Positions 5,723-43,428 are shown, counted from the stretch's first letter. The stretch: 64,000 bases of DNA from Escherichia coli (GCF_011045215.1 NZ_CP049201.1), one strand, 5' to 3'. Made by a program: numbers and translations. The notes: generated from the letters alone by a model not told the origin.

Positions 5723-8700
5723 ATGATTACTATTGACGGTAATGGCGCGGTTGCTTCGGTCGCATTTCGCACCAGTGAAGTTATCGCCATCTACCCTATT
5801 ACCCCCAGTTCCACGATGGCAGAACAGGCTGATGCCTGGGCCGGAAACGGCTTAAAGAACGTTTGGGGAGACACACCACGCGTGGTTGAAATGCAGTCGG
5901 AAGCGGGTGCTATCGCTACCGTGCATGGCGCTTTGCAGACGGGTGCCCTTTCAACATCGTTTACATCATCGCAGGGTTTGCTGCTGATGATCCCGACGCT
6001 GTACAAACTGGCAGGCGAACTAACACCGTTTGTCCTGCATGTAGCGGCACGTACCGTTGCCACACATGCACTCTCTATTTTTGGCGATCATTCCGACGTC
6101 ATGGCGGTGCGCCAGACGGGTTGCGCGATGTTGTGTGCGGCAAACGTCCAGGAAGCGCAAGACTTTGCTCTCATTTCGCACATCGCGACGCTGAAAAGCC
6201 GCGTGCCATTTATTCATTTCTTTGATGGTTTCCGCACGTCCCACGAAATCAATAAAATTGTCCCGCTGGCCGATGACACGATTCTTGATCTCATGCCGCA
6301 GGCCGAAATTGATGCTCATCGCGCCCGGGCGCTCAACCCGGAACATCCGGTGATCCGCGGTACGTCCGCCAATCCTGACACTTATTTCCAGTCTCGCGAA
6401 GCCACCAACCCTTGGTACAACGCGGTCTATGACCATGTTGAACAGGCGATGAATGATTTCGCTGCTGCGACAGGTCGTCAGTATCAGCCGTTTGAGTATT
6501 ACGGGCATCCGCAAGCGGAACGGGTGATTATCCTGATGGGCTCTGCCATTGGCACCTGTGAAGAAGTGGTTGATGAATTGCTAACCCGTGGCGAAAAAGT
6601 CGGCGTGCTGAAAGTTCGCCTGTACCGCCCCTTCTCCGCTAAACATTTACTGCAAGCTCTGCCGGGATCCGTACGCAGCGTGGCGGTACTGGACAGAACC
6701 AAAGAAGCCGGTGCCCAGGCAGAACCGCTCTATCTGGATGTGATGACCGCACTGGCAGAAGCCTTTAATAATGGCGAGCGTGAAACCCTGCCCCGTGTCA
6801 TTGGTGGGCGCTATGGTCTTTCATCCAAAGAATTTGGTCCGGACTGTGTACTGGCGGTATTTGCCGAGCTCAACGCGGCTAAACCGAAAGCGCGCTTTAC
6901 GGTTGGTATTTACGATGATGTGACTAATCTGTCACTGCCGTTGCCGGAAAACACCCTGCCAAACTCGGCGAAACTGGAAGCCTTGTTTTATGGCCTTGGT
7001 AGTGATGGCAGCGTTTCCGCGACCAAAAACAATATCAAGATTATCGGTAATTCCACGCCGTGGTACGCACAGGGCTATTTTGTTTACGACTCCAAAAAGG
7101 CGGGCGGCCTGACGGTTTCTCACCTTCGAGTGAGCGAACAGCCGATTCGTTCCGCTTATCTCATTTCCCAGGCTGATTTTGTTGGCTGCCACCAGTTGCA
7201 GTTTATCGATAAATATCAGATGGCTGAGCGTTTAAAACCTGGCGGCATTTTCCTGCTCAACACACCGTACAGCGCAGATGAAGTGTGGTCGCGCTTGCCG
7301 CAAGAAGTTCAGGCCGTGTTAAACCAGAAAAAAGCGCGCTTCTATGTGATTAACGCGGCGAAAATCGCCCGCGAATGTGGCCTGGCGGCCCGTATTAATA
7401 CCGTCATGCAGATGGCTTTTTTCCATCTGACGCAAATTCTGCCTGGCGATAGCGCCCTCGCAGAATTGCAGGGTGCGATTGCCAAAAGTTACAGTAGCAA
7501 AGGCCAGGATCTGGTGGAACGCAACTGGCAGGCTCTGGCGCTGGCGCGTGAATCCGTAGAAGAAGTTCCGTTGCAACCGGTAAATCCGCACAGCGCCAAT
7601 CGACCGCCAGTGGTTTCCGATGCCGCCCCTGATTTCGTGAAAACCGTAACCGCTGCGATGCTCGCCGGGCTTGGTGATGCCCTCCCCGTTTCGGCGCTGC
7701 CGCCAGACGGCACCTGGCCGATGGGCACTACGCGCTGGGAAAAACGCAATATCGCCGAAGAGATCCCCATCTGGAAAGAGGAACTCTGTACCCAATGTAA
7801 CCACTGTGTTGCCGCTTGCCCACACTCAGCTATTCGCGCAAAAGTGGTACCGCCTGAAGCGATGGAAAACGCCCCTGCCAGCCTGCATTCGCTGGATGTG
7901 AAATCGCGTGATATGCGCGGGCAGAAATATGTCTTGCAGGTGGCTCCGGAAGATTGCACCGGTTGTAACCTGTGCGTCGAAGTTTGCCCGGCGAAAGACC
8001 GTCAGAATCCAGAGATTAAAGCCATCAATATGATGTCGCGCCTGGAACATGTCGAAGAAGAGAAAATCAATTACGATTTCTTCCTCAACCTCCCAGAAAT
8101 CGACCGTAGTAAACTCGAACGTATTGATATTCGTACATCACAGCTGATTACACCGCTGTTTGAATATTCAGGTGCTTGCTCCGGTTGTGGCGAGACGCCG
8201 TATATTAAATTGCTGACTCAGCTCTATGGTGACCGGATGTTGATCGCTAACGCCACCGGCTGTTCTTCAATTTATGGCGGTAACCTGCCCTCTACACCGT
8301 ATACTACCGATGCCAACGGTCGTGGTCCGGCCTGGGCGAACTCTCTGTTTGAAGATAATGCCGAATTTGGCCTGGGTTTCCGCCTGACGGTCGATCAACA
8401 CCGTGTACGCGTGCTGCGTCTGCTGGATCAATTTGCCGATAAAATCCCGGCGGAATTACTGACTGCGTTGAAATCAGACGCCACGCCAGAGGTTCGTCGT
8501 GAACAGGTTGCAGCTTTACGCCAGCAACTCAACGATGTTGCCGAAGCACATGAACTGCTGCGTGATGCAGATGCGCTGGTAGAAAAATCAATCTGGCTGA
8601 TTGGTGGCGACGGCTGGGCTTACGATATCGGCTTTGGCGGTCTGGATCATGTATTGAGTTTGACAGAAAACGTCAACATTCTGGTGCTGGATACGCAATG

Positions 8701-9247
8701 CTATTCCAACACCGGTGGTCAGGCGTCGAAAGCGACACCGCTGGGTGCAGTAACTAAATTTGGCGAGCACGGCAAACGTAAAGCGCGTAAAGATCTTGGC
8801 GTCAGTATGATGATGTACGGTCATGTTTATGTGGCGCAGATTTCTCTCGGCGCGCAACTGAACCAGACGGTGAAAGCGATTCAGGAAGCGGAAGCGTATC
8901 CGGGACCATCGCTGATCATTGCTTATAGCCCGTGTGAAGAGCATGGTTACGATCTGGCACTCAGCCATGACCAGATGCGCCAACTCACAGCTACCGGCTT
9001 CTGGCCGCTATATCGCTTCGATCCGCGTCGTGCCGATGAAGGCAAACTGCCGCTGGCGCTGGATTCACGCCCGCCGTCAGAAGCACTGGAAGAAACGTTA
9101 CTTCACGAGCAACGTTTCCGTCGTCTGAATTCGCAGCAGCCAGAAGTGGCAGAACAGTTATGGAAAGATGCTGCAGCTGATTTGCAAAAACGCTATGACT
9201 TCCTGGCACAAATGGCCGGAAAAGCGGAAAAAAGCAACACCGATTAA
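5723..9247 (+). CDS. ydbK: Pyruvate:flavodoxin/ferredoxin oxidoreductase (PFOR)
   Basis: 1174-aa ORF; two 4Fe-4S ferredoxin motifs (CTQCNHCVAACP, CTGCNLCVEVCP) and TPP-binding region (GGDGWAYDIGFGG). Confidence 0.97.
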   Translation: MITIDGNGAVASVAFRTSEVIAIYPITPSSTMAEQADAWAGNGLKNVWGDTPRVVEMQSEAGAIATVHGALQTGALSTSFTSSQGLLLMIPTLYKLAGELTPFVLHVAARTVATHALSIFGDHSDVMAVRQTGCAMLCAANVQEAQDFALISHIATLKSRVPFIHFFDGFRTSHEINKIVPLADDTILDLMPQAEIDAHRARALNPEHPVIRGTSANPDTYFQSREATNPWYNAVYDHVEQAMNDFAAATGRQYQPFEYYGHPQAERVIILMGSAIGTCEEVVDELLTRGEKVGVLKVRLYRPFSAKHLLQALPGSVRSVAVLDRTKEAGAQAEPLYLDVMTALAEAFNNGERETLPRVIGGRYGLSSKEFGPDCVLAVFAELNAAKPKARFTVGIYDDVTNLSLPLPENTLPNSAKLEALFYGLGSDGSVSATKNNIKIIGNSTPWYAQGYFVYDSKKAGGLTVSHLRVSEQPIRSAYLISQADFVGCHQLQFIDKYQMAERLKPGGIFLLNTPYSADEVWSRLPQEVQAVLNQKKARFYVINAAKIARECGLAARINTVMQMAFFHLTQILPGDSALAELQGAIAKSYSSKGQDLVERNWQALALARESVEEVPLQPVNPHSANRPPVVSDAAPDFVKTVTAAMLAGLGDALPVSALPPDGTWPMGTTRWEKRNIAEEIPIWKEELCTQCNHCVAACPHSAIRAKVVPPEAMENAPASLHSLDVKSRDMRGQKYVLQVAPEDCTGCNLCVEVCPAKDRQNPEIKAINMMSRLEHVEEEKINYDFFLNLPEIDRSKLERIDIRTSQLITPLFEYSGACSGCGETPYIKLLTQLYGDRMLIANATGCSSIYGGNLPSTPYTTDANGRGPAWANSLFEDNAEFGLGFRLTVDQHRVRVLRLLDQFADKIPAELLTALKSDATPEVRREQVAALRQQLNDVAEAHELLRDADALVEKSIWLIGGDGWAYDIGFGGLDHVLSLTENVNILVLDTQCYSNTGGQASKATPLGAVTKFGEHGKRKARKDLGVSMMMYGHVYVAQISLGAQLNQTVKAIQEAEAYPGPSLIIAYSPCEEHGYDLALSHDQMRQLTATGFWPLYRFDPRRADEGKLPLALDSRPPSEALEETLLHEQRFRRLNSQQPEVAEQLWKDAAADLQKRYDFLAQMAGKAEKSNTD

Positions 9248-9275
9248 ATGCTCTGTATAAGGATTATCCAATTCT

Positions 9276-9312
9276 AAAAAAAAGCCCGGACGACTGTTCG
9301 GGCTTGTCTTTT
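9276..9312. terminator. Bidirectional rho-independent terminator shared by ydbK (+) and micC (-)
   Basis: A8 run, hairpin GCCCGG-ACGACTGT-TCGGGC, then T-rich tract; read directly. Confidence 0.8.
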
Positions 9313-9385
9313 TATATGTTGGAAAATCAGTGGCAATGCAATGGCCCAACAGAAAATAAAATCTGTGACAATAAAGGCATATAAC
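9277..9385 (-). ncRNA. micC: MicC small regulatory RNA (Hfq-dependent, represses ompC)
   Basis: Minus strand reads GTTATATGCCTTTATTGTCACAGATTTTATTTTCTGTTGGGCC...CCGGGCTTTTTTT, matching the known MicC sequence; lies between ydbK and ompN as in K-12. Confidence 0.9.
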
Positions 9386-9612
9386 CCGCGCAGAATAACG
9401 TATAGAAAATTAAAAGTATAATTTTTATTTTGTATGTATTATCTTCGATACATTCACCAGACTTATTATCATTTCAGAGGAATTATTTGATTAAGGTTTT
9501 ACTTAAGGCGTAACAAATGATATTTATCGGCTAACTGAACTTCTCCTTTAGGATGTTTTCACTCCCCGAAATGGGGATCAAAGGCAAATAAAATAACTAA
9601 AGGATTTATTCA

Positions 9613-10805: not shown

Positions 10806-11321
<516 letters not shown>

Positions 11322-11328
11322 CACTAAC

Positions 11329-11353
11329 GCCCGCACATTGCTGCGGGCTTTTT
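11329..11353 (+). terminator. Rho-independent terminator of uspF
   Basis: GCCCGCA-loop-TGCGGGC followed by TTTTT. Confidence 0.8.
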
Positions 11354-11496
11354 GATTCATTTCGCAAATGTGCTGACATTTTCCCCTCTAATCCGTACCA
11401 TACACGCCACAGTTTTTATATCAGATTTCTTATGCTGGGCGTTCCGGCATGACGCATACTCTTCTGATGCCATATAACGAATTGAGTCGCTTTTAA

Positions 11497-11550
11497 ATGT
11501 CGCAAAATCAAGAAATTAGCAAGAAAGAACAATACAATCTGAACAAGTAA
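11497..11550 (+). pseudogene. ttcC: Remnant of the original ttcA 5' end (ttcC-like), displaced by prophage integration
   Basis: ATG...TAA encodes MSQNQEISKKEQYNLNK*, paralogous to the intact ttcA N-terminus [17 protein letters not shown] at 60641; stop lies immediately after the att core. Confidence 0.7.
11532..11546. repeat. attL core (15-bp direct repeat ATACAATCTGAACAA)
   Basis: Identical 15-mer at 60676..60690 inside ttcA; flanking bases show extended imperfect identity. Confidence 0.8.
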
Positions 11551-11643
11551 GGGCAAAAATCACAACCATCTGATGCATAATAGTTTTATTTATTTTTCAA
11601 TGCGTTAATCATTATCAGCAACAACAATAAGCTACGATAATCC

Positions 11644-11697
11644 ACTCTTTTGTTGCCCCATTTTTGCCCCTTTTACAGCATTTTGCCCCATTTTTGC
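11644..11697. promoter_or_regulatory. Repeated TTGCCCCATTTTTGCC motifs; candidate integrase arm-type binding sites
   Basis: Two copies of TGCCCCATTTTTGCC ~100 bp inside attL; a related TTTGCCCCATTT motif sits between int and attR (60601-60620). Confidence 0.4.
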
Positions 11698-11785
11698 CAC
11701 CGAAAAAATTCCAAAACTTCTCAACCTCAGCACGTTCTTGAATATGGCATATGACAATTTCCTTTACGATTTATATGCTGTTATA

Positions 11786-11815
11786 AAAATCCCCAGTTGT
11801 CAGCAACAACTGGGG
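11786..11815 (-). terminator. Rho-independent terminator after the HTH-peptidase gene
   Basis: CCCCAGTTGT-CAGC-AACAACTGGGG hairpin followed by a U-rich tract on the minus strand. Confidence 0.7.
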
Positions 11816-11873
11816 ATTTACTTTTCAGGCCCAAAAGACGTTCACTACGACTCTAGATGTGAGCATTTACGGG

Positions 11874-12980
11874 TCATACTAGTCGGAGCGAAGCCCTTGA
11901 TGGTGTTCTTTTGTTATTTCCGCCACTAATTGCCGCAACTCCATAAAGCAAACTACTCAATTCATCGAGAGGTACGTTAAGCTCATTACTCAAGTGAGCC
12001 AGATAAATGCCGTCTCCAGCCAGAGCAGTCATCATTTTTTCTATAACGAGTGATCTTTCGCGCTCAATTCCCCCCGGCTCACCGGTTCGATACCCCTTTG
12101 CCGTCGCATCACGCATCAAACTATTATACTGCCATTCCGTCAGCATATTTAGATTGCGCATTCTGACAATCAGGGCCATAGCCGAAACTTTCCAGAGTGA
12201 TTTCAATTGCACAATTTTATCAAACGTCGGGACCACCATCTTAACGGCCATCACGTTTTCCTGAGGCATTAGAAATGCAGAAGCAAAAGCATCCGCTTCA
12301 CGCTCAGCATCCTGCCCTTTGACTTCCCCTTGACGATGAAGTACTAGGTGAGCCAATTCATGTGCGGCATCAAAACGGCTGCGTTCACCTGACTTGCGTG
12401 TGTTAAGAAAGATATAAGGAACATCATCTTTCCAGAACGAAAAAGCATCAATACTCGCTGTTTCCTCTGAAAGCCAGAACACCTTAACTCCAAATTTCTC
12501 AAGTAGATGAACAACATTGGTGATACTCTTCTTACCAATCCCCCAAGCCTCGCGTATCGCTTGGGCAGCGACCTCAGGCTCACTTCCACGGAGATTCGGC
12601 AATTGAGGCGAAGGAAGAGTAAAGCGAGCATTAAAATAATCGCTAAGCATAACCCCTAAAGCACCTGCACCAATTGCCGCATGCTGGTCAGCAGCTTTTG
12701 TTGTGCGTAATGAACGAAATGAAACAGTCAATGGATCAATTGTTTCAACATCATCGCCAAAGAAAAAAGCCTCTGGATAATTTAAAGCACTAGCGTATGC
12801 GCGTACCGTCTCTGCCGTGGGTGCATAAAGACAATAATCTTTTTCGTATTCAATTACGATACGACTAGATAACCCGGTTCGCCTCGCCAGTTCTGCCAAG
12901 GTCAGTTTGCGTCTGATCCGCGCTAGCTTTAGTCGAGACGGATTAAAAAGACGTTTGACATCATCAACAGTGTTACTCAT
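11874..12980 (-). CDS. Fused XRE-family HTH / ImmA-IrrE (COG2856-type) zinc metallopeptidase protein; candidate antitoxin or regulator
   Basis: N-terminal HTH (LKLARIRRKLTLAELARRTGLS) and HEXXH motif (HELAHLVLH); ATGA start/stop overlap with upstream gene. Confidence 0.75.
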   Translation of the reverse strand: MSNTVDDVKRLFNPSRLKLARIRRKLTLAELARRTGLSSRIVIEYEKDYCLYAPTAETVRAYASALNYPEAFFFGDDVETIDPLTVSFRSLRTTKAADQHAAIGAGALGVMLSDYFNARFTLPSPQLPNLRGSEPEVAAQAIREAWGIGKKSITNVVHLLEKFGVKVFWLSEETASIDAFSFWKDDVPYIFLNTRKSGERSRFDAAHELAHLVLHRQGEVKGQDAEREADAFASAFLMPQENVMAVKMVVPTFDKIVQLKSLWKVSAMALIVRMRNLNMLTEWQYNSLMRDATAKGYRTGEPGGIERERSLVIEKMMTALAGDGIYLAHLSNELNVPLDELSSLLYGVAAISGGNNKRTPSRASLRLV

Positions 12981-13648
12981 TTGCTTTCAACTGAAATTGA
13001 TATGTCATCATCAAAATCCTGTTCAGGGAAAATATCCGCACCTTCAAATTGCAGAGGAGCTAAAATAATTCGCTCACTCCACGCGCTTACTCTGGCAAAT
13101 CCGTCCTGATTCACCATCCCTACCGGATACGACACCTCACAGCGAATTTCTTTATTTGCCGCATCATAATAATACAGAACGATATAAGTTCGGGTGCTAT
13201 CTATCGGCGTGATCTCAGCTTTGCCTGAATGTAAGGTATCTGCTTGGAACATATCGAATGTACCCGGATTGTTGTGAACAATCGAGCGAGTTGCCTCTCC
13301 CTTTGCATTTTTGGTTTTAGGCAATCCATCAGGACGCCCGGTATGTCCGTCACCTGAGGTAATAATCAGATTAACCCCTTTGCTTGAATTAACGACCATT
13401 TCCATGCGATTGACTACTTCAGAAGACCAGCCGTTACCCTTACCAATCAGAATACGGCGAAGCGCGGCAACCATCTCACTCCAAAAGCGGAATCCAGCAT
13501 CCACTTTAGGGTGGAGCTTACTGGATTTGCGTCGCTCGTATAAAGCAGACATTAACGCATCGCGAATATCATTTTCTGTAAAGCCCAGTTTACTAAGTAC
13601 AAAATCCGAATCAATTCCTGTATGCAGAACACAATGAGGCATATTCAT
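12977..13648 (-). CDS. Hypothetical protein, partner of the HTH-peptidase gene (candidate toxin/effector)
   Basis: Track ORF 12977..13666; ATG at 13648 with GGGAGA upstream; no recognisable motif; translationally coupled to downstream gene. Confidence 0.55.
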   Translation of the reverse strand: MNMPHCVLHTGIDSDFVLSKLGFTENDIRDALMSALYERRKSSKLHPKVDAGFRFWSEMVAALRRILIGKGNGWSSEVVNRMEMVVNSSKGVNLIITSGDGHTGRPDGLPKTKNAKGEATRSIVHNNPGTFDMFQADTLHSGKAEITPIDSTRTYIVLYYYDAANKEIRCEVSYPVGMVNQDGFARVSAWSERIILAPLQFEGADIFPEQDFDDDISISVESK

Positions 13649-13884
13649 GAAAGTTTCTCCCATCACTTTTACTTCATGATTTTATCATAAAATTTATGCA
13701 AAAATCAAGAAGTGACACCCTGCAAGCGATTGTAGACTTTCTCTTGTTTTCTTACGTTCCTGCTCTCCAATTGCGCAATTGATTTCTTCAACAATATGAG
13801 AGTACACATCATAAACCTCCGACTGCAGCCAGCAACCGGAGCCTCATTCTTCAGATACCAGAACAACTCACTGCGACCTATTCG

Positions 13885-14448
13885 TTACTCAACATTAAAT
13901 GCTCGTATCGCATCTAAATCCTCCAGACTACTCAACTCCTCCTTCATCTCCCGCTGACGCTGATAAATCTCGTCATTGCGATCGACCTGCGCCTGAACCA
14001 TTGCAGTAAGTAGCTCATCCAGTTGTTGCATTGACAACTTTACCTGCTGATTTTCCGCATCACCCCATACCATGTTTTTCCGTGCCGTGACTGATTTTGC
14101 TGATATCACCACCGGGTAAAGACGGGCCATCGAATCCGGTCCCCCGTTCCAGCTATGACCGTTCCATTCAAAAATGAATGGCTGCGCCTCCTGCTCTGTA
14201 CGCCATGCTTCAATTTCCCGGCGTTTGGCTGCTTTTGCTGCTTCCAGCATCTCTGGCGTGACGGTGAACGGCGTTATTTCTCCCCACTTGCCGCTTTGCA
14301 GTTCCTGCCAGACTCGCTGCCCTGTCTCTGCTGTATCCGTGGCAGTTGCCGTATACGGAACCGGTTCATCCATGCCATCAAACAACACCCCGCAGTCAAT
14401 CGCGCCATTTTCAAGATAACGCGCATTTTCGATGCGTTTTATTTCCAT
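13885..14448 (-). CDS. Tail fibre assembly protein (Tfa-like chaperone)
   Basis: Begins MEIKRIENARYLENG...; directly downstream of the Stf-like fibre gene. Confidence 0.75.
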   Translation of the reverse strand: MEIKRIENARYLENGAIDCGVLFDGMDEPVPYTATATDTAETGQRVWQELQSGKWGEITPFTVTPEMLEAAKAAKRREIEAWRTEQEAQPFIFEWNGHSWNGGPDSMARLYPVVISAKSVTARKNMVWGDAENQQVKLSMQQLDELLTAMVQAQVDRNDEIYQRQREMKEELSSLEDLDAIRAFNVE

Positions 14449-14455
14449 AAAACAC

Positions 14456-15880
14456 CTACGCAATACGTATGAACAAACCAATCATGACACTGGCTGACCC
14501 GGCAGACCCGAGTTCATCGCCTGACAGTGCACGATATGACCCCGGCATACCACCACCAGAACCCCGCACATATACGGAAACGCTGCCGTTATATCCAACC
14601 CCGCTACCGGTCGTGCCGTGACACATAAATTCAACCGCGCTCAGACGTGACCCCGGATAGCTGTACCCGCGTTTTATCCGGCGGTCGGTGTCTGCGTCTC
14701 CCTCACCGTTACAGGCCGCCAGTACAAGACTGCCTGTACCGTACCAGCCGTCCGTGGTACCGGGAGCAATACCGGACAGAAGAGAGATAATGTCCTGTGA
14801 GGTCATCTTCAGATTTTCCCAGCCAGTCAGATAACCATTACCTGTTGTCCAGTAGCGGCTGTAATAAACATCGCCATTAATACCGTAGAAAATAATGGCC
14901 TTTGCTGTATATCGCGGCTCCGGTGGATTATTGCGTGCCTCAACCCACCGGATTCTGACCACCCCGTTAAACAACACACCTCCGGATATGATTTTACTGC
15001 CACCCTCAACAAAATATTCACCCGGCGTCGCATTCCTTACCCATGCCAGAAAATCATCCTCTGTGTTAAAACGGATACGCTCTGCGGGCAAAAAAATATG
15101 CCCAAAACCAAATGCGCCAGGTGTCGCCAGACGACCTTCAGTCCGGTCACGAATGTCGCTCTGTGGCATCATTGTGGCAGCGCTTTTCAGTCCAAGATTA
15201 TCACGGGATTCCTGCTGAGCCTCTTCACCTTCATCAGCCAGCTCTGACAGGCGATTCGCCGTTTTCAGTGTCGCAGATAACGCAGTATCAATATCTGCTC
15301 TGGCCTGCTCTGCACCGGATGCGGCCTGTTTAGCAGCTTCAGCGTCCTTTTTTACCTCTGCGGCGGCATTCTCAACCTGCGAGGCCAGATTTTCGGCCTG
15401 TTGTTTACCCTCCGCAACAGCGTCGGCGTTCTGCTGAACACCTTCCGCCAGTTTTTTTACCTCTTCTTTTGCCCGGGCGGCAGCATCTGCATGTTGCCCT
15501 GCCTGTCGTTCGCTTTCTGTTGCGGTTTCGGCACCCTGCTGCGCCTGCGCCACCATTTCCTCAAATCGTTTCACCACGTCGGGTTTGAGGTCGCCTTCAT
15601 CCAGGGCAGTCAGAAAATCGTTCAGCGTGCCGGGCTTTGAGTCGTCGTATACAGCAATATCGCCAACACAGTACTCGTCGCGCCAGCCCTGTTTCAGATA
15701 TACGCAATATTTTCCGGTCTGCGCCTCAAAACAGTACTCGCCACAGTTTCCTGTCACCACGTCGGCAACTGTGCGCATCACCACCTCTGAGGTGTTTACC
15801 CGGGATTTCAGAATAATGTGGCATCCGGACATGGAGATACCTGCGCCATCAATCAGCGCACCTGATATCACTACAGACAT
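14456..15880 (-). CDS. Side tail fibre protein, lambda Stf-like
   Basis: N-terminus ISGALIDGAGISMSGCHIILKSRVNTSEVV...YDDSKPGTLNDFL resembles lambda Stf; Ala/Glu-rich coiled-coil centre. Confidence 0.8.
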   Translation of the reverse strand: MSVVISGALIDGAGISMSGCHIILKSRVNTSEVVMRTVADVVTGNCGEYCFEAQTGKYCVYLKQGWRDEYCVGDIAVYDDSKPGTLNDFLTALDEGDLKPDVVKRFEEMVAQAQQGAETATESERQAGQHADAAARAKEEVKKLAEGVQQNADAVAEGKQQAENLASQVENAAAEVKKDAEAAKQAASGAEQARADIDTALSATLKTANRLSELADEGEEAQQESRDNLGLKSAATMMPQSDIRDRTEGRLATPGAFGFGHIFLPAERIRFNTEDDFLAWVRNATPGEYFVEGGSKIISGGVLFNGVVRIRWVEARNNPPEPRYTAKAIIFYGINGDVYYSRYWTTGNGYLTGWENLKMTSQDIISLLSGIAPGTTDGWYGTGSLVLAACNGEGDADTDRRIKRGYSYPGSRLSAVEFMCHGTTGSGVGYNGSVSVYVRGSGGGMPGSYRALSGDELGSAGSASVMIGLFIRIA

Positions 15881-15903
15881 AGTTTTTCTCGCGATAAATT
15901 AAA

Positions 15904-16449
15904 TCAGGAAGAGGCTTCCGGAGAGACGGGCCATTCAATGGCGTTATATGAGGCTTTATCAGTGACGGTGCTGAAATCCATCGCCTGCAGCGATTTCGCG
16001 TAAATGCGGTACGCTTTCAGCTTTTCCCTGTCTTCGTCGCTGATTAATCCCAGCAGCAGGTCTTTTTCCCATTCGCTGGTCATGATGCTGGCCTGTTGTA
16101 ACAGGGCATCGCGTTCATCTTCTGCTTTAAGTTTGTAGTCGAAAACAAATTCATCATTGCGGTAAAACCAGTAACCAGGCACGGTAATACGGCGATTAGC
16201 GGTAATATCAGGAACTTCAATAACACTGGCGTTACGGGGTTCAATACCTGTCACATCCTTACCGACCCACACCACGCGTCCGTCTCCGGTGTAAACCATT
16301 TTTATGGTGTCACTGGCAAAGTTCTTCTGTTCTTCATACCAGTTTTTGCCGTCTTCCGAAAAAAGCCAGGTGACATCATACTGTTTTGTCAGCTGATATT
16401 GTTCCGCGGTTTTCGGATTACCCGCAGTAATATTTTTTAAATGCAACAT
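15904..16449 (-). CDS. Tail fibre assembly protein (second chaperone)
   Basis: 181-aa ORF directly downstream of a fibre gene; Tfa-like size and position. Confidence 0.65.
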   Translation of the reverse strand: MLHLKNITAGNPKTAEQYQLTKQYDVTWLFSEDGKNWYEEQKNFASDTIKMVYTGDGRVVWVGKDVTGIEPRNASVIEVPDITANRRITVPGYWFYRNDEFVFDYKLKAEDERDALLQQASIMTSEWEKDLLLGLISDEDREKLKAYRIYAKSLQAMDFSTVTDKASYNAIEWPVSPEASS

Positions 16450-16451
16450 TG

Positions 16452-18005
16452 TTAAACACTCGCCACGTTATACCAGGTGCCGTTAATCAGTTTCTGAAGC
16501 GGTCGGTAATACACGCCGCCGATGTTATCTGCTGAATTTTTTCCGGTATCCTGCACATTAATACCGGATAATCCGTGGCCTGAAGGTGAGCGAAATGTCC
16601 AGGATTTTTCGTTACCTCCCGGGTTATAAAACATTTCGGAGCCATAACGCACATCCTGCACGCCGCCATTTCGCTGCTGGTAACGGGCATCGAAATTTCC
16701 ATAGTTTGATGGAACCATCTGTCCGTTTACAGCGAATGTGATACTGCCATCGGTATTTCTCTGGCTGTAGAAATGCCAGCCGGAATCATCACCAAGCTCT
16801 GCAACTACAGGTCGGGATGAATTACCCCATAAATTAAACGTTGCATTTTTCGTGGAGTTGTTGGCGCTGGATAACGTGAATTTTTTAGCATTTCCGGCCT
16901 GAATATTTTTTAACGCTATCGCCACACCATTCTGGAAACGAAATACATGCTGTCCATTCGCATAAACATCCAGAATGCCGTCGCCGTTTTGTTTTATACC
17001 TGTATCGTTATCCCCGAAAGCAATTGAGTTTCCGCCCAGCGCGTTCTGAACGCCGATACCCAGCGCACCATTGACCTGCGAACCACCGCCAACAGACACT
17101 TTATGCGACATGGATATTTCACCAGTCCGCAGATTAATAGTGAACGGGCGAAGTGGACCAATATCGCCATTCTCGCCCTGACCTTCACTGGTAGGGATAA
17201 GGTGCAGGCACTCTTCCGAACGACGAAAAATAAGGCCAAAAGCGTCGTTGAAAATCCTCAGCGCATTAACACCACGGATTTTCAGCTCCCCGGTCATCAA
17301 ATCACCAGATTTTTTTACATATCGCAGATCAAAATCTGAATAGATATTGCTGGGGTTTATCACGCTGAAATAGCTTTTCTCGCTATCAAGAAGGCAAATC
17401 AAAGGAATACCCTTAATGATATCATTCGCTACCAGCTCGGACTTGTTCCCCTTATAAAGTGGGAACGTACCAAGAACCTTTCCGCCTAGTGTTAGTTGAA
17501 GTGTCGCCGCGTTGGTATTGTTCTGAACGGGGAAGACGATAATCGGGGTTCGTAGCGTCCAATCTGTACCCTCATTAACAAAAAACGTCGAGGGAAGTTC
17601 CAGCGCCAGTGTGTTTGCAGTGCCACCAGCAACACCCGCAATATAATGACCGCTCTGAAGCTGCGCTATCTGTACGAAATAGTTTTCCGATCCACGCGTG
17701 GCAAAGTTAGCCACTACGTCATTAAGGGACCAACCTTTCGCGGTTGTTCCTTCCTGCCCACGAATGACTTTCAGCACGTCACCGTTTACCGATACCAGGT
17801 GACAAATCTCAAATGCAGACTCTTTATTATCGGTAAGCGTAATTTTTGCATAGACGCGTTGCCCGTTCGATTTATTTTCAAAATCGGCAGAAAGCAATTT
17901 TGCAAATTTAGCTCCCGTGCCCGGCATCACCGGAATATCAGTCTGAATCGTCGTAATATCACCAGCCAGTGCTGAAACAACGTTATTGCCGAATCCAAGA
18001 ATCAT
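16452..18005 (-). CDS. Tail fibre protein (baseplate-proximal)
   Basis: 517-aa Gly/Asn/Ser-rich ORF following the baseplate genes; typical fibre position. Confidence 0.7.
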   Translation of the reverse strand: MILGFGNNVVSALAGDITTIQTDIPVMPGTGAKFAKLLSADFENKSNGQRVYAKITLTDNKESAFEICHLVSVNGDVLKVIRGQEGTTAKGWSLNDVVANFATRGSENYFVQIAQLQSGHYIAGVAGGTANTLALELPSTFFVNEGTDWTLRTPIIVFPVQNNTNAATLQLTLGGKVLGTFPLYKGNKSELVANDIIKGIPLICLLDSEKSYFSVINPSNIYSDFDLRYVKKSGDLMTGELKIRGVNALRIFNDAFGLIFRRSEECLHLIPTSEGQGENGDIGPLRPFTINLRTGEISMSHKVSVGGGSQVNGALGIGVQNALGGNSIAFGDNDTGIKQNGDGILDVYANGQHVFRFQNGVAIALKNIQAGNAKKFTLSSANNSTKNATFNLWGNSSRPVVAELGDDSGWHFYSQRNTDGSITFAVNGQMVPSNYGNFDARYQQRNGGVQDVRYGSEMFYNPGGNEKSWTFRSPSGHGLSGINVQDTGKNSADNIGGVYYRPLQKLINGTWYNVASV

Positions 18006-18628
18006 TTTTGAATCACCGTTGTTGCATAGGAATAAATAAAAGGGAGTTTTACATATTTCTGGTCAATGGCATCTTTCAGAAAATAGCCTATACCATCACC
18101 ATATTCTGGTATCTGAATAGAAAAAACACTGTCCGATACAGTCACGCTCACATCAAAAGTGTGCTGCAACGGCGGGTCTATTCCGTTTTTTCCATGAATA
18201 AAGCGCGCCACACGGCGCTTTAACCAGTCAATGCAGAAATGCGAACCGTCAGCCTTGTAAAAATTCCACGTTAATATTCGTTTGAAATAATCATCCGGAA
18301 CATACGATGCCTGCCCCGGAACATAATTCCGCATTGCCGCATAAGGGATTGTATTGTATTCAATGGTATCGTATGCGCCGCGTGCAATAGCCTCCTCGGA
18401 AACCTGTAGTAAAGGCCTTTCAACGCCATAAATCCCGAGAGCAATCCAGTCCAGCAATTGCCCGGTTATTGATTCCGATGTCCAGCATGGCAATGCCAGA
18501 TTGTTGAGTGAATCGAGGTATTCCTGAGCAATTTCATTGTATGCATCAAAGAACGCAACAACATTCGGATCATCTCTGTACTGCACAAACGGATAAGCAG
18601 GGAGAATTTTTTCAGTCAGATATTGCAT
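18002..18628 (-). CDS. Tail/baseplate protein (Mu gp48-like position)
   Basis: Track ORF 18002..18736; internal ATG at 18628 (MQYLTEKILPAY...); sits between the J-like gene and the tail fibre. Confidence 0.5.
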   Translation of the reverse strand: MQYLTEKILPAYPFVQYRDDPNVVAFFDAYNEIAQEYLDSLNNLALPCWTSESITGQLLDWIALGIYGVERPLLQVSEEAIARGAYDTIEYNTIPYAAMRNYVPGQASYVPDDYFKRILTWNFYKADGSHFCIDWLKRRVARFIHGKNGIDPPLQHTFDVSVTVSDSVFSIQIPEYGDGIGYFLKDAIDQKYVKLPFIYSYATTVIQK

Positions 18629-19838
18629 ACTTGTTAACTTGAACCTGTGATGCCACCGTCGAAAAATAGGAATAGGTATCGCCATAAACCAGGCTTGTGT
18701 CTTTTGCCGGAGGAACAATATGGCCATTAATGCCAATGCTCACACTGATTGTTGAGATCAACGTCGCATCAACCAACAATCTGACGGAACTGGTAAAAAT
18801 ATCCTGGATTCGCAGCAGATTTATCGGGTGTCCGACTTCAATAGAATTGATGTAATCAGCAACGTTTTGCTGCACAGCCATAGCAATACCCGCCGGATCA
18901 ACATAATCATCAGATACAGTGTTCCAGGTGATTAGCACCATGACGTTTTGTGATGACGGGATAACGAACGGCACCTGATAAACATCTGGCGAAACGGTTA
19001 TTGAAACCGTGCGTTTTTCCACTGCCGCACCAGATGGATTGCTAACATCGTTGGTCAGTTTCGAAATATCCGGTACAGATTTGTAAATAGCATAAGCCAC
19101 ATCATACGGATCACCGCCACCAACAACCGCAACCCATTTCCCCAGCGACGACTGCCGGAAAGAAATCAGGTTTTCTCGCACACCGCTTACTGATTTGAGC
19201 ATCGCTTTAAAGCAATCCGGTGTTCCCTGCACACCAAACATGCCGGACTCCATGACTTCGGCGCGGTAAGATGCCCACGTTTGCGCCTCCTGACCTGGCA
19301 TCCCTGCGGTAAGGTTCGTGCATTTTACAGGCTGATCTTTGGGTACCGATGTAATGACCTGCGTTACGGTTCCTTCCGGTACAGCCCATGAGCCTGACGT
19401 TGTGGCCACACAGTAGACTGGCTCAGTCTGCCCGCTTTCCGGCACCACCGTATCGCGGGAAACTGCATACTGGTAGTTGCCGTCACCGACAACAAATCCT
19501 TTAGGGATACCAAACCCCGGCAACGCCTCAAACACCACGTATACCGCCGTATTTGTACTTAATCCCTTCTGTGCTCCATAAATGTTTCCGAGTTGCATCA
19601 ATAACGGAATATTTGCGCCGTATGGGCTTACGGAGTTAATAAGGTCCACCCGCGCCTGGTCTATTAATGCCAGCGCCCCGACTGCCGTGCTGGCAAGGTC
19701 AGTAATAAGCCCCGCCGGAAGGTTGGCTGTATATCCAGGTACTTTTTCAGCAACTCTGATGATAAGATCTGCAAGCAAATCATTGGGTGGCGTAGGCTGC
19801 GCCCCCGCACTGGTCATAGTAATTGGTATTTCTGACAT
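18612..19838 (-). CDS. Baseplate J-like protein
   Basis: 408-aa ORF in baseplate context; assignment by position and size only. Confidence 0.5.
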   Translation of the reverse strand: MSEIPITMTSAGAQPTPPNDLLADLIIRVAEKVPGYTANLPAGLITDLASTAVGALALIDQARVDLINSVSPYGANIPLLMQLGNIYGAQKGLSTNTAVYVVFEALPGFGIPKGFVVGDGNYQYAVSRDTVVPESGQTEPVYCVATTSGSWAVPEGTVTQVITSVPKDQPVKCTNLTAGMPGQEAQTWASYRAEVMESGMFGVQGTPDCFKAMLKSVSGVRENLISFRQSSLGKWVAVVGGGDPYDVAYAIYKSVPDISKLTNDVSNPSGAAVEKRTVSITVSPDVYQVPFVIPSSQNVMVLITWNTVSDDYVDPAGIAMAVQQNVADYINSIEVGHPINLLRIQDIFTSSVRLLVDATLISTISVSIGINGHIVPPAKDTSLVYGDTYSYFSTVASQVQVNKYAISD

Positions 19839-19850
19839 ATTTACTCCATT

Positions 19851-19876
19851 AAAAAACCCGCTTTCGCGGGTTTTTT
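19851..19876 (-). terminator. Hairpin terminator (bidirectional form) right after the cargo nuclease gene, inside the tail operon
   Basis: AAAAAA-CCCGC-TTTC-GCGGG-TTTTTT. Confidence 0.75.
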
Positions 19877-19878
19877 AC

Positions 19879-21039
19879 TTATTCAACCTCTTCTAAACTG
19901 CTCACTCTGGACCCTCGGCGGAAATTATCATCATTTTTAACATACTCGTATGAATCCAGAATCAAACCAGATATGCGAAGTATATCTTCCGGATTAGTTA
20001 TATGTATCCTTTTACCATCCGTATCAAGTCGAGCTCGTCTTATTTCATTCAACTGAACTTCACTAAGCGAAATAGGTAAAGTTATAAATGAAGATTTTTT
20101 ATCATAAAATCTTAACAGCCATCTATTTGTTTTACCATTCAATAGTACACCGAAATATGACTCAGTATCTTTATATTCTATATTATCTTCTGTTTGTATG
20201 ATTTGTTTTACCCTTTCAAATAGCTCCAATTCTTTGGCTGTGGTTATTATGTTGGGGTTTTCTTCATCAACAATGGCGTTATTAACTTGTGTATCCGTTG
20301 CATCATTTTCTTTAGTTTGCTCTACCGGTTGTGTAGATAGCCCGGAAACCACCATTGCGCTAACAGCGCGCTCAACGGCCTGTTTAACTAATGGAGTCAC
20401 GAACTCAAGAAATCTCTGATTAAGTTGTCTCTCAATATTTGAACGACTAGCAACATATCGAACAAACTCCAGATCAACTTCACGAAGACTAGAACTGATT
20501 GTTTTAGTAAATGAATTCAAATAAACACTTTCTTCAGCCAGTGTCCGTAAAGCCTCTGGTTTGAATTTATCATAACGAAAACGAAATAATTGTGTAATAT
20601 CGGAGTGAGTTAGAGAATCCATTCTTAATTTTAAAAACGGCGTTGAATCCATTATGTTTTTTTGTTTCAAATCCGTAAAAAAACGCCATTCAACACCATT
20701 TGTAATGGCTGATATAGTAACTTCCGGTGTTGAATTAAAATATCTTGATAGCTGTGGGCAGTGATTATCAATTTGTTCTGAAAACGATTTCGCCTCAATG
20801 AACATCACAGGAACATCATGACAAAATAAAGCGTAATCAACCCGTTCATTAGCCTTAACCCCGGGGAAGTCAGCACTATACTCAGCTTTGACTTTTCTTG
20901 GATCATACGGAGTAAAACCAAGAATATCTAGTAATGGCATAATGAGTGCTTGTTTTGTCGTTTCTTCAGTTGTACAAAACACCCCCATTTTTGCAACATG
21001 CTCTGTGTGTATTTTTAACTTATTTGCAAAATTTTCCAT
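19879..21039 (-). CDS. PD-(D/E)xK nuclease-fold protein (HsdR-N/Mrr-like N-terminal domain) with unknown C-terminal domain; cargo gene
   Basis: Track ORF 19879..21054; ATG at 21039 with GGAGGAGA upstream; motif ...VDYALFCHDVPVMFIEAK... (D...E-x-K); own AT-rich upstream region and own terminator. Confidence 0.7.
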   Translation of the reverse strand: MENFANKLKIHTEHVAKMGVFCTTEETTKQALIMPLLDILGFTPYDPRKVKAEYSADFPGVKANERVDYALFCHDVPVMFIEAKSFSEQIDNHCPQLSRYFNSTPEVTISAITNGVEWRFFTDLKQKNIMDSTPFLKLRMDSLTHSDITQLFRFRYDKFKPEALRTLAEESVYLNSFTKTISSSLREVDLEFVRYVASRSNIERQLNQRFLEFVTPLVKQAVERAVSAMVVSGLSTQPVEQTKENDATDTQVNNAIVDEENPNIITTAKELELFERVKQIIQTEDNIEYKDTESYFGVLLNGKTNRWLLRFYDKKSSFITLPISLSEVQLNEIRRARLDTDGKRIHITNPEDILRISGLILDSYEYVKNDDNFRRGSRVSSLEEVE

Positions 21040-21188
21040 GCTTGTCTCCTCCATGGTAACAATATGTATTTTGCAAATCCGAAATAATATATGTCAATAT
21101 GCTCCAGCTTAGAAAATTACTCGCCCCCCTAAAATATCTCTCTACAGCACTCCAAACCAAGGTAAAAGTTTTATCATAAAACTGTGAT

Positions 21189-21536
21189 TCATACCGGCAC
21201 CTGCGTCCGGTAACTGGTCCCATTAAAAAACACAACATCGATGTTATAGGTGGGGTTATCTGCTCCATCTACCTTTGAAATTGCCAGTGATGCAAAATAC
21301 CCAGCAAACTGTTGCTGAACCATGTTCACATAGTAGTCTGGGTAAATCTGCTGCACGATGCACTGCTGCGCAGGAATACCGTAATTCGCGTAAAACGGCG
21401 ACTCCCCCAATCCCAGCTTTAACGTCTGAATGAGCGTCGTCAGCCAGCCGTAGGAGAAATCACCGTTGGCGTCAGATTCTACTGCAACCCATTTTTTGTT
21501 GCCGTTCGCGTCGGTGACGCGGCCCCATGTTCTCAT
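21189..21536 (-). CDS. Baseplate/tail protein (gp25/W-like position)
   Basis: 115-aa ORF between the spike gene and the J-like gene; positional call. Confidence 0.4.
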   Translation of the reverse strand: MRTWGRVTDANGNKKWVAVESDANGDFSYGWLTTLIQTLKLGLGESPFYANYGIPAQQCIVQQIYPDYYVNMVQQQFAGYFASLAISKVDGADNPTYNIDVVFFNGTSYRTQVPV

Positions 21537-27579: not shown

Positions 27580-28917
27580 TCACGAAAGCTGCATTGTCAC
27601 ATTGATGTTAAAAATGATTTCGACAAATCCGCGCATCGGCGTATAGGAGGCCGAAAGGCCCGCATAACGCCCGATACCGTAATCATTCGGATTCGTGTTG
27701 ATATACTGGCGGAAAGGCACTGCATCTACGACAGGCTGGCCGTTGACCAGGCCGTAAGATACGCCCGTATTGAACACCGCCTGTGCGACCTGCTGCAGAC
27801 GGTCGATCCCGTCCTGGTTGTAGTAAAGCGGGTTAATTGGGTTATTGCAGCCGTTGATCACCGCGTTGGCGAGCTGCATATCGACGTTAATCTGCACCCA
27901 ATCCACGGAATACCAGTACGTCATATCGTTACCGTCACTGGTAACGCCTTTCACCAGGATCGTGTTGGAGATTCCACCCTCAGCACCCGTTTCGATGTAG
28001 TTAATATTCTGCTTCGTCATCGTGGCCAGAATGGAATTTTTGCCCTTGTGGGCGTTTACCGCCTGTAAATAGCGAAATGCCATCGGCGGCACCTTGTTGA
28101 TTTCTGAAGGTGATGCGGAAACATAGTTCCACATTACGGCTGCTGCCGCGTTTGTCGCCGGGTACGTATCATCCGCCGTTGCAATAACCGACTTAATACC
28201 GGCATAAGGCGAAACGTAATTCGTGTCGTCCGGCGTTTTCGTCAGCACGAAGAAATACTGCATCGCTTCGTTGGCGGTGTGGAGTTTTGCCAGACTGATA
28301 AACTCTGCGTCACCATCCCACGGCTGCGGCACCAGATACGCATAAAAACGCAGGAGCGGATCTTCCATATAAGCTTTCAGTGCAGCGATTTCCTTACTGA
28401 CTCCGCCTTTCTGTACTCCCAACTCCAGCAGGTAAATCCCCACTGAATTTCCCTGGGCAAAAAACGTGTTTACTGCCGTCACCAGATTTTCACTGCCAGC
28501 AATGGAAAACTGACCCAGTGTCACTGGCGAACCGGAAAGCTGAGAATCAGCTATTGTCCAGGTCAGTGTTTTTTCATCCGCGACGGTAGCAGTATATTCG
28601 CCGTTCCACGCGTCGGGAGAGCAACCGGAAACGACAATCTTTACCTCAGAACTGTTTTCGCGCCGGATATTACTCCCTTCCGGAAGCGTCATCGTAACAG
28701 TGACGTTTGTCGCAGATTTTCCTGCGGCTGCTGCCGACAGTGCTGCAATCGGATTTTTAACCAGATCGTTGATATCCTGATTACGGGTGAGTAATACGGG
28801 TTTCCCAGGCTCATGAGTCGTGGAGCCAAACGAGAGAACCGCGGACATCTGCTGCAAATTCGAGGGAATGGCCCCGATGGTCTGGGACACATTCACCGTG
28901 ACGATATTAAATCCCAT
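27580..28917 (-). CDS. Tail sheath protein
   Basis: 445-aa ORF directly upstream of the tube gene; contractile-tail gene order. Confidence 0.6.
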   Translation of the reverse strand: MGFNIVTVNVSQTIGAIPSNLQQMSAVLSFGSTTHEPGKPVLLTRNQDINDLVKNPIAALSAAAAGKSATNVTVTMTLPEGSNIRRENSSEVKIVVSGCSPDAWNGEYTATVADEKTLTWTIADSQLSGSPVTLGQFSIAGSENLVTAVNTFFAQGNSVGIYLLELGVQKGGVSKEIAALKAYMEDPLLRFYAYLVPQPWDGDAEFISLAKLHTANEAMQYFFVLTKTPDDTNYVSPYAGIKSVIATADDTYPATNAAAAVMWNYVSASPSEINKVPPMAFRYLQAVNAHKGKNSILATMTKQNINYIETGAEGGISNTILVKGVTSDGNDMTYWYSVDWVQINVDMQLANAVINGCNNPINPLYYNQDGIDRLQQVAQAVFNTGVSYGLVNGQPVVDAVPFRQYINTNPNDYGIGRYAGLSASYTPMRGFVEIIFNINVTMQLS

Positions 28918-38852: not shown

Positions 38853-39104
38853 TTAGTCCTGATTTTTATCCACCCTGAGTAGTTCACGCAGGGCAAAGGC
38901 ATCCCCTTTTCTGGCAAGCTTAAACAATGCCGCCCGTAGTTCGGCTTCACCTTTCGCTCTGCCCTTACGGATGGATGCGTAAAAATCTGTCATTGCTTCC
39001 CGATTTTCTTTCAGTCGGTTCAGATCAACATCCAGAACGTCAGCGATTTGTTGTGCAGTCATCCGGCACGCTGCCAGAGACTCGACTTTCGAATACGGAA
39101 TCAT
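38853..39104 (-). CDS. Hypothetical small protein
   Basis: 83-aa ORF just upstream of TerS. Confidence 0.35.
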   Translation of the reverse strand: MIPYSKVESLAACRMTAQQIADVLDVDLNRLKENREAMTDFYASIRKGRAKGEAELRAALFKLARKGDAFALRELLRVDKNQD

Positions 39105-39990
39105 TTGTCACCCCCATTGATATGCAGGGTGTCTTCTTCCTGTATTTTTCGTGAAGGATTTTTACTGCAGCGTTGTTCCAGGTGACCTGATGGTGAATGC
39201 GTTTATGGCTGGCCCCCATCAGTGAGATTTTTACGCACGAGGGCGCATACATGACGGAGTAAAAACTTTTAACGTAGGTTCCGGAATCCAGATACAGCTC
39301 GGTCATTCCGCCGCTGTTTTTCTGCGTCTGTTTCTGCCCTAACTGGACAGCACCGATCGTCATAAACAATTCACCACAGCGACCGAGATTCGTGTACGTA
39401 TTCACATCCTCGTTAATGCGCCCCATGAATGAGAACGGTCGATCAACCGAACAGATAAAGCTGTTCATTGCCTTGCGTTTCACCCACGAAGCATGGCCGC
39501 CATTGTCACCAAGAAAATCCCCGCCCTGCGACATAGCGATGGAAAGCGCAGGTATTGATTCGTAGTACGCCAGCATTTCAGAAAGGATCGCATCCAGTTT
39601 TCTTATCGGGAAATAGGCCTGGTCATAGTTGCGATCCACCCGAAACTGAAACTCGTGATAATCATCATCGAGCTGAATGAAGTATTTACACCCGACCAGT
39701 TTTGCCAGGTCGAAACAGGCATTACGGGCGTAAAAAATTGAGCGGCGATCACCGAAATTATCGGCTTCGTCAAAACGACTGGCTATATCGGCTTTGGAAA
39801 ACACCAGCACCTGTTCACCAAATTCAGCTATGTACTGATGCCGTGTCTTATCTTCATCATCAACAACGATAAAAATTTTCCCGGTATAGCCAGCACGACG
39901 CAACGTCCGGTAAGTCAGAACTTTGTCCGGTCGCCCGTGAGTCAGAATAAAGGCGCAAAAATCATCACGCATATTCCTCCTCCCCGCCAT
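39040..39990 (-). CDS. Hypothetical protein with glycosyltransferase-like (GT-A-like) motifs
   Basis: N-terminal FILTHGRPD and later DDD motif (IQLDDDY) suggest a nucleotide-sugar transferase fold; alternative ATG at 39972. Confidence 0.4.
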   Translation of the reverse strand: MAGRRNMRDDFCAFILTHGRPDKVLTYRTLRRAGYTGKIFIVVDDEDKTRHQYIAEFGEQVLVFSKADIASRFDEADNFGDRRSIFYARNACFDLAKLVGCKYFIQLDDDYHEFQFRVDRNYDQAYFPIRKLDAILSEMLAYYESIPALSIAMSQGGDFLGDNGGHASWVKRKAMNSFICSVDRPFSFMGRINEDVNTYTNLGRCGELFMTIGAVQLGQKQTQKNSGGMTELYLDSGTYVKSFYSVMYAPSCVKISLMGASHKRIHHQVTWNNAAVKILHEKYRKKTPCISMGVTNDSVFESRVSGSVPDDCTTNR

Positions 39991-43277: not shown

Positions 43278-43349
<72 letters not shown>

Positions 43350-43352
43350 ATA

Positions 43353-43428
<76 letters not shown>

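Follow-up and report, generated by a model that had tools for sequence, protein, structure and literature searches.

Two tandem tail fibre/chaperone cassettes, probably two receptor-binding modules, close the late operon of a contractile-tailed prophage at the Rac site of Escherichia coli

Gin/Pin-type switches act at the fibre loci of Mu, P1, e14 and Rac-type prophages. Side tail fibres of phage Ur-lambda are borne by a collar of twelve StfN domains, which is located at the gpV-gpM junction and carries four trimeric fibres (PMC12617516), and in the contractile-tailed phage XM1 the neck carries six gp40 trimers, which bind its head-completion and tail-terminator proteins (PMC10457771). Proteins of the DUF4376 type were demonstrated by experiment to be fibre chaperones in V22, A5 and CJIE1 (PMC7289586, PMC10579305, PMC7882524). 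The present analysis concerns four tail genes (positions 13,885 to 18,005) in a stretch of 64,000 nucleotides (nt) from Escherichia coli (GCF_011045215.1, NZ_CP049201.1), the whole of which is referred to here as the window. They form two fibre/chaperone pairs with which the late operon of a prophage of ~49 kb terminates.

With a probability of roughly 65 %, the block represents two independent receptor-binding modules which are co-transcribed with the baseplate genes of a contractile-tailed relative of phage Rac-SA53 and operate without a switch. Module 1 is a pair of the Mu S/U type, i.e., a fibre with a baseplate-specific N-terminus whose tip is predicted to fold with the aid of a Caudo_TAP chaperone. 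Module 2 is an accessory fibre composed of an immunoglobulin (Ig)-like collar anchor of the lambda StfN/XM1 gp40 type, a coiled coil of ~115 residues and a globular tip, the latter presumably folded by a cognate DUF4376 chaperone, the variable N-terminal part of which would be matched to the tip. Fibre 1 is probably mounted at the baseplate, and fibre 2 may dock via StfN at a place independent of the tail family, by analogy with XM1 most likely a neck collar. The best-supported reading is that both fibres are present on one virion and would provide it with two binding specificities.

The block and its immediate borders comprise the following features, numbered from the first nucleotide of the window:

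18002-18628, minus strand: last gene of the baseplate module (208 amino acids, aa; PHROG 8212), directly upstream of fibre 1
16452-18005, minus strand: fibre 1 (517 aa; PHROG tail-fibre families)
15904-16449, minus strand: chaperone 1 (181 aa; PF02413, PHROG 136)
14456-15880, minus strand: fibre 2 (474 aa; PF08400)
13885-14448, minus strand: DUF4376 protein (187 aa; PF14301, PHROG 1141)
13817-13841, minus strand: terminator-like stem-loop with a 10-bp stem (consensus scan), ~45 nt past the DUF4376 stop codon and with a weak T-tail

All four genes are intact and co-directional and close the late operon, in agreement with the preliminary description, which had reported two complete fibre/chaperone pairs at these positions. 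The ATG of fibre 1 and the TGA that ends the upstream baseplate-module gene overlap in an ATGA, the following intergenic gaps amount to only 2 nt (fibre 1/chaperone 1), 23 nt (chaperone 1/fibre 2) and 7 nt (fibre 2/DUF4376), and the genes are thereby packed like one operon. A mechanical call of the fourth open reading frame (ORF) extends from 13885 to 14481 (TTG start, 198 aa); the ATG at 14448 yields 187 aa, fits the 187-190 aa of annotated homologues and is likely the start. Promoters and terminators were called by consensus matches only; by this measure, no strong terminator was called between the four genes, the internal minus-strand candidates being 5-7-bp stems inside genes, and the stem-loop at 13817-13841 may tentatively be regarded as the likely end of the late operon. 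PHROG matches to families of tail fibres and of chaperones (E 1e-60 to 1e-162) and homologues in the hundreds show that the ORFs did not arise by chance; zero matches were obtained for the four proteins in NCBIfam, and none in Pfam for the 208-aa baseplate-module protein. Tandem duplication of one cassette was rejected as the origin of the arrangement, as the two fibres (BLASTP E 4.1) and the two chaperones (E 0.35) are not related to each other.

The tail bearing these fibres is contractile, since a sheath gene is present in the late region:

27580-28917, minus strand: gene for the tail sheath (445 aa; PHROG 205, E 2e-53)

The late genes, all on the minus strand, also code for a baseplate hub, a central spike resembling phi92 gp138 and baseplate J (PHROG). 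Nearest phage records are 'Escherichia phage Rac-SA53' (KU052037) and 'Actinobacillus phage vB_Apl-pPE4' (PP818812), the latter with 93.6 % DNA identity across 71 % of the 10.9-kb query, as well as phiP27, which is close for the fibre block only.

Fibre 1 consists of an anchor (residues 1-~229), a shaft (230-360) and a variable tip (360-517). The anchor is specific to the tail family of the prophage, and only residues 230-517 are shared with L54 of phiP27, with ~95 % identity in the 230-360 segment (tblastx). As in the Mu S-U complex (PDB 5YVQ), the tip is followed by its chaperone gene directly downstream: the fibre-1 C-terminus is related to Mu gpS (5yvq_A, E 1.2e-14, residues 419-516) and to the short tail fibre of phiTE (9cuy_c, E 1.1e-15), while chaperone 1 contains Caudo_TAP (PF02413, E 1.4e-24) and resembles TfaMu, i.e., Mu U (5yvq_B, E 1.1e-39, residues 1-159). 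Cassette 1 hence displays both hallmarks of the Mu S/U type, a PF02413 chaperone directly downstream and a Mu S-like fibre tip. Its earlier placement near the baseplate is borne out by the translational coupling to the baseplate module and by the ~229 N-terminal residues specific to the tail family.

Fibre 2 begins with a collar-type StfN anchor (residues 1-93, nt 15602-15880), followed by a helix or coiled coil (~101-215) and a globular tip (~260-474). Residues 1-133 match Pfam phage_tail_N (PF08400, E 2.4e-59), 40 of 93 residues are identical to lambda StfN, and the anchor is related to the Ur-lambda Stf collar (9e7m_Ta) in sequence (E 1.5e-15) as well as in predicted fold (AF2 and Foldseek, TM 0.85 against the target). 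It is likewise related to the XM1 collar spike (7kjk_A3; sequence E 2.3e-6, Foldseek E 2.1e-6), and the succession of an Ig-like domain and the helix 101-215 (~115 residues; sequence and AF2) corresponds to the N-terminal domain of the XM1 type. The AF2 model of fibre 2 has a mean pLDDT of 66.8 and depicts the monomer of a trimeric protein. In its C-terminal half, fibre 2 shares no similarity with Stf and has no solved structural relative in a Foldseek search of this model, so that the comparison of the C-terminal domain proposed earlier for reading the receptor specificity indicated no receptor. Tip relatives among phage records are only uncharacterised lytic coliphage fibres (Av-05, TH18 and Goslar; 30-36 % identity). 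The designation of fibre 2 as lambda Stf-like thus holds for residues 1-~130, where PF08400, the 40 of 93 identities and the 9e7m fold agree, but not for the tip. Of the features of lambda Stf-Tfa, cassette 2 possesses PF08400 but neither the non-contractile tail nor a gp37-like fibre with Caudo_TAP Tfa; the prophage virion is sheathed and therefore has no exposed gpV-gpM tube junction of the kind used in Ur-lambda.

The partner of fibre 2 contains PF14301 (E 8.5e-16, residues 81-188 of the 198-aa ORF) and was modelled by AF2 with a pLDDT of 96.7. No match to Caudo_TAP, no BLAST similarity to chaperone 1 and no profile or fold match to TfaMu were obtained. The claim that fibre 2 is accompanied by its own Tfa accordingly stands as far as the predicted chaperone role of the partner gene is concerned, but the protein is of the DUF4376 and not of the lambda/Mu Tfa type. 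It resembles gp27 of V22 (Alteromonas), gp9 of A5 and the CJIE1 protein (Campylobacter) in size (~190 aa), C-terminal PF14301 and the position of its gene right after the fibre gene; these are, however, distant relatives only and belong to other fibre types, for the function of which their DUF4376 proteins are needed. Among 33 complete, mutually related loci, pairwise identity of the fibre-2 tip correlates with that of the N-terminal 75 aa of the DUF4376 protein (r = 0.81), the strongest correlation among adjacent segments, versus r = 0.14 for the tip and the Tfa1 N-terminus. Moreover, residues 185-474 of fibre 2 are 88 % identical to a tip on a P2 H-type anchor (PF12571), the DUF4376 protein of which is likewise 88 % identical; tip and DUF4376 pair have been carried jointly onto this anchor, and this version, found in P2/HP1-like phages, is again the second fibre after a fibre-Tfa pair. 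The DUF4376 protein is thus probably the cognate chaperone of the fibre-2 tip. In two IMG/VR loci of the same tail family (L070 and L074), a Mu U-like Caudo_TAP protein takes the place of DUF4376 behind the second fibre, which is of the StfN type (465 aa); the chaperone class thus tracks the tip and not the anchor.

Annotated E. coli prophages at this site show the same gene order, as do Rac-SA53 (tail1-4), pPE4 and phiP27 (L54-L57), and the tail family was found in 86 of 5,426 complete E. coli genomes. Eighty IMG/VR loci harbour a close relative of the StfN anchor; they are related to each other, and counts among them do not represent independent events. A Mu U-like Tfa is located directly upstream of the StfN fibre in 66 of these 80 loci (BLAST) and, according to PHROG matches, a Tfa-type gene in two further ones (L066 and L073). 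Of the 41 loci that offered enough DNA, 31 have a DUF4376 gene after the StfN fibre. While the 208-aa baseplate protein is 99-100 % identical in the five related prophage and phage records compared, the downstream fibres vary: in strain C7, fibre 1 is 98 % and fibre 2 only 55 % identical, in strain GmM062 the respective values are 82 and 95 %, and in Rac-SA53 Tfa1 is 41 % identical and fibre 2 has 1061 aa. From these comparisons, the two cassettes exchange alleles independently while the baseplate gene stays constant. An invariant baseplate, varying fibres, co-variation of tip and chaperone and reuse of the tip are hallmarks of a receptor-binding protein with its cognate chaperone, and cassette 2 therefore displays these hallmarks. 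A recent one-off acquisition or a remnant of an earlier Rac element was discarded as the principal explanation, given that the order recurs in 86 complete genomes, in the three phage records and at about 80 loci of IMG/VR. Acquisition of the distal cassette by recombination, as suggested earlier, is consequently tenable as a deep, family-wide mode, but not as a recent event in this prophage, the order of which is the family norm.

No similarity was detectable between head, neck, tail and baseplate proteins of the prophage and those of phiP27, the overlap of the late regions being confined to the fibre block, and yet 89 of 93 StfN residues are identical. In exact form, the same 100-aa StfN anchor occurs in two contractile tail families (IMG/VR loci L017-L096). 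Anchors with 80-87 % identity head the second fibre in L025 and L073/L078, which are lambdoid siphovirus loci where J, Lom, Stf and Tfa are succeeded by a second StfN fibre (+ DUF4376), and in the P2-like locus L066, here after an H-type fibre-Tfa pair. Cassette 2 thus behaves as an add-on after the primary fibre-Tfa pair, whatever the tail type. Possible docking sites for fibre 2 are a generic ring, for which the XM1 neck is the precedent, the fibre-1/Tfa complex or, in some hosts, none at all.

The last of these possibilities would be realized if fibre 2 and the DUF4376 protein were a passenger cassette of lambdoid (Rac-type) origin, expressed without being mounted or useful only after recombination into a siphovirus. 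Such an origin is suggested by the StfN anchor, which is best known from siphovirus tails and has close variants behind Stf-Tfa in loci that are truly lambdoid, by the occurrence of the same anchor sequence on unrelated tails, by the existence of deletion remnants of fibre 2 and by the attR-proximal position of cassette 2, which is the place of stfR-tfaR in the Rac prophage of K-12. A mere passenger is nevertheless unlikely: cassette 2 is intact and operon-coupled in nearly all members of two myovirus families, its hypervariable tip and co-varying chaperone fit a receptor-binding protein on which selection acts, a homologous N-terminal domain is mounted on the contractile-tailed XM1, and P2/HP1-like phages have placed the same tip on a baseplate-type anchor, which shows that myoviruses use the module.

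A comparably low probability is assigned to a branched fibre, in which StfN would dock on the fibre-1/Tfa complex and provide each baseplate socket with a two-headed fibre. The only late proteins common to the prophage and phiP27, namely fibre 1 (residues 230-517), Tfa1, fibre 2 and the DUF4376 protein, would be compatible with such an assembly, as would the identical anchors in both tail families and the placement of a Tfa-type gene directly before the StfN fibre in the 66 of 80 loci and in L066 and L073, i.e., in myovirus and lambdoid contexts. TfaMu reportedly remains on the Mu fibre (North et al. 2019, in the words quoted in PMC7882524), and T5-like phages are among those with branched receptor-binding complexes. 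However, binding of StfN to a fibre or to a Tfa is without precedent, both solved cases involving ring-shaped tail or neck proteins, and the Tfa synteny is equally accounted for by operon order and by recombination at conserved linkers. Between StfN and the Tfa C-terminus, the correlation of identities is weak (r = 0.28), and the P2/HP1-like second fibre bears a baseplate-type anchor at the same gene position.

Somewhat more probable than either of these, but still tentative, is a generalization of the module: StfN fibre and DUF4376 protein may form a 'plug-in' receptor-binding unit independent of the tail type, which would dock on a generic neck or tail ring whose shape it recognises, or on the fibre-1/Tfa complex. 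If so, a recombination event at the tail-operon end would suffice for any of these phages to gain a second specificity. A tail-agnostic anchor would be a handy means of engineering the host range of temperate phages and tailocins, and would account for a broadened adsorption without a switch in prophages of pathogenic E. coli, the Stx2e phage phiP27 among them.

Several observations weigh against two co-displayed receptor-binding modules. An identical StfN on two tails with otherwise dissimilar structural proteins is odd for a specific docking domain, and comparison of the neck, tail and baseplate proteins with XM1, Mu, P2 or other solved virions yielded no sequence match except for the central spike (phi92 gp138); docking at the neck therefore has XM1 as its single precedent. 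The co-variation of adjacent segments is partly due to linkage, and the mutual relatedness of the compared loci inflates r. Fibre 2 was lost in some degenerate phiP27-like prophages. Finally, a literature search yielded no paper on Rac-SA53 virions and nothing useful on the virion composition of phiP27.

The 'P27' of PMC12502783 is a different podovirus and was rejected as a source on phiP27. Degenerate phiP27-like prophages were found beside tRNA-Ser/hya in the chromosome of E. coli AST19 (L007) and in record pE300082_261 of E300082 (L008). Fibre 2 is deleted in both, and what is left consists of a 5' stub of ~40 nt and of a DUF4376 pseudogene of 129 nt; a YmfQ pseudogene is present as well, and one of the two carries an IS2 insertion. 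Record pE300082_261, which is labelled as a 262-kb plasmid, contains the chromosomal hya operon.

Absence of an inversion switch was claimed from the outset, together with that of an invertase and of inverted repeats, and both statements withstood the searches. No invertase was detected in a PHROG scan of the prophage ORFs of at least 110 aa, from which antisense shadow ORFs were excluded; the sole recombinase is the Rac-type tyrosine integrase. A tblastn search with a Hin sequence in six frames of the whole window had its best hit at E = 1.6. The longest inverted repeats in 11300-21200 measure 14-23 nt and are all imperfect above 14 nt; crossover sites of ~26 bp were not found there, nor was the AAACC..GGTTT core. 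An invertible switch of the Gin/Pin/Hin type was hence rejected in view of the absence of an invertase from the scanned ORFs and the six-frame search, the missing crossover-type repeats and the co-directional cassettes. Because both fibre genes are complete, possess their own N-terminal anchors and share one orientation, inversion could not swap their C-termini.

A perfect 14-nt inverted repeat, TTCAGATACCAGAA (13850-13863) and TTCTGGTATCTGAA (18104-18117), brackets the four-gene block almost exactly. About 0.2 perfect 14-nt pairs are expected by chance per 9.9 kb (estimate). Since its right arm falls within the upstream baseplate gene, the repeat is considered a coincidence. This pair, together with the use of Gin/Pin-type systems by the prophages named at the beginning, is what could be adduced for a hidden switch, by which one cassette at a time would be expressed via an invertase acting in trans or via regulated read-through. 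Such a switch is highly improbable, with no invertase homologue in the window, a repeat at chance level that has one arm in an essential baseplate gene, and no strong terminator called between the cassettes.

The Rac site (ttcA/uspF) is where the prophage is inserted. Its att core of 15 bp occurs twice (11532-11546 and 60676-60690), and this repeat, together with the int gene beside ttcA, delimits an element of ~49 kb at this site. On the chromosomal flank, nifJ/ydbK (5723-9247), ompN and uspF precede the start of the prophage; at its far end, a Rac-type tyrosine integrase (411 aa) adjoins ttcA. In its early region the prophage is of lambdoid/Rac-like make-up, with RecET-like genes, CII, replication O/DnaC-like, Q, a holin and the RalA small RNA. 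RalA, known as the antitoxin of the type I system RalR/RalA of Rac, is located near the integrase end and thereby confirms the Rac-type early region. Small RNA genes in and around the prophage are:

58855-59033, minus strand: RalA small RNA, near the integrase end
9268-9388, minus strand: host small RNA MicC, beside ompN, an ordinary chromosomal gene flanking the prophage region
63343-63460, minus strand: host small RNA FnrS, likewise an ordinary chromosomal gene flanking the prophage region

Some database labels of related elements look doubtful. This applies to the host given for PP818812 ('Actinobacillus phage') in view of its match to an E. coli prophage, and to the strain names of CP026085 and CM135829, both called E. 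coli DH5alpha and both holding the E. coli W/LY180-type version of the prophage, which K-12 is not known to carry.

Further genes near the block and elsewhere in the prophage are:

12977-13666, minus strand: Rosmer RmrT (229 aa; PADLOC E 1e-59)
11874-12980, minus strand: Rosmer RmrA (368 aa, with helix-turn-helix and ImmA/IrrE peptidase; PADLOC E 6e-143)
19879-21054, minus strand: 391-aa protein with an N-terminal HSDR_N domain (type I restriction R subunits) only, between two baseplate genes
39040-40840, minus strand: 291-aa ParB-like protein (PADLOC type II methyltransferase-like, E 7e-37) and 316-aa PHROG 842 protein, just upstream of the small terminase
43277-43428, minus strand: phage-borne tRNA-Gly(TCC) and tRNA-Thr(TGT), between the gene for a Q-like antiterminator and the holin

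The two-gene Rosmer defence system is located after the tail operon just inside attR and has a promoter-like site of its own (13708-13679); in related prophages, its position holds other cargo or none. The HSDR_N gene has a GC content of 0.357 versus ~0.47 around it, and the PADLOC search retrieved no match for its product. At its position, Rac-SA53 and pPE4 harbour different, oppositely oriented cargo including an antirepressor, and the site looks like a moron hot spot within the baseplate cluster. The ParB-like and PHROG 842 proteins may form a DNA-modification or anti-restriction pair. In Stx phages, the position between Q and holin is occupied by tRNAs and toxin genes.

Compared with described systems, cassette 1 is closest to Mu S-U, but the prophage block possesses no invertible G segment, no Gin and no S'/U', its second cassette is unrelated in sequence and co-directional, and neither the fibre-1 N-terminus nor the baseplate is Mu-like. 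With Ur-lambda Stf (PDB 9E7M), fibre 2 shares the StfN collar domain (residues 1-93) followed by linker and coiled coil, but its tip is unrelated to Stf/gp37 and its partner is DUF4376, not Caudo_TAP. Gp40 of XM1 (PDB 7KJK) likewise combines an StfN-like Ig N-terminal domain with a coiled coil of ~100 residues, and this in a contractile-tailed phage; its tip, however, is a tailspike, and no sequence relatives of the neck proteins of XM1 were detected in the prophage. Encoding of two receptor-binding proteins, presumably co-displayed, is shared with the T-even phages (long and short tail fibres, LTF/STF), with Jilinvirus, Wifcevirus and Gordonclarkvirinae of BASEL and with phiTE; these phages differ in being lytic and in using other fibre families, and for small myoviruses the literature leaves the relation between the two sets open. 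The closest counterparts are phiP27 (NC_003356) and Rac-SA53 (KU052037), both of which contain the four genes in the same order and attR-proximal, with 55-77 % identity in phiP27 (for fibre 1 in the C-terminal 288 aa only) and 41-80 % in Rac-SA53, and with StfN domains identical to that of the prophage in 87-89 of 93 residues. They differ in carrying other tip alleles, with fibre 2 spanning 474 to 1061 aa, and the records say only 'tail fiber'; phiP27 in addition has a Mu-like baseplate and nothing beyond the fibre block in common with the late region of the prophage. The layout is common and already annotated in temperate phages of E. coli, and for this window it is routine. Of some wider value is the pattern of an accessory fibre module, with a conserved anchor and a chaperone class of its own, that turns up after the primary fibre in several unrelated tail types and shuffles independently of this fibre.

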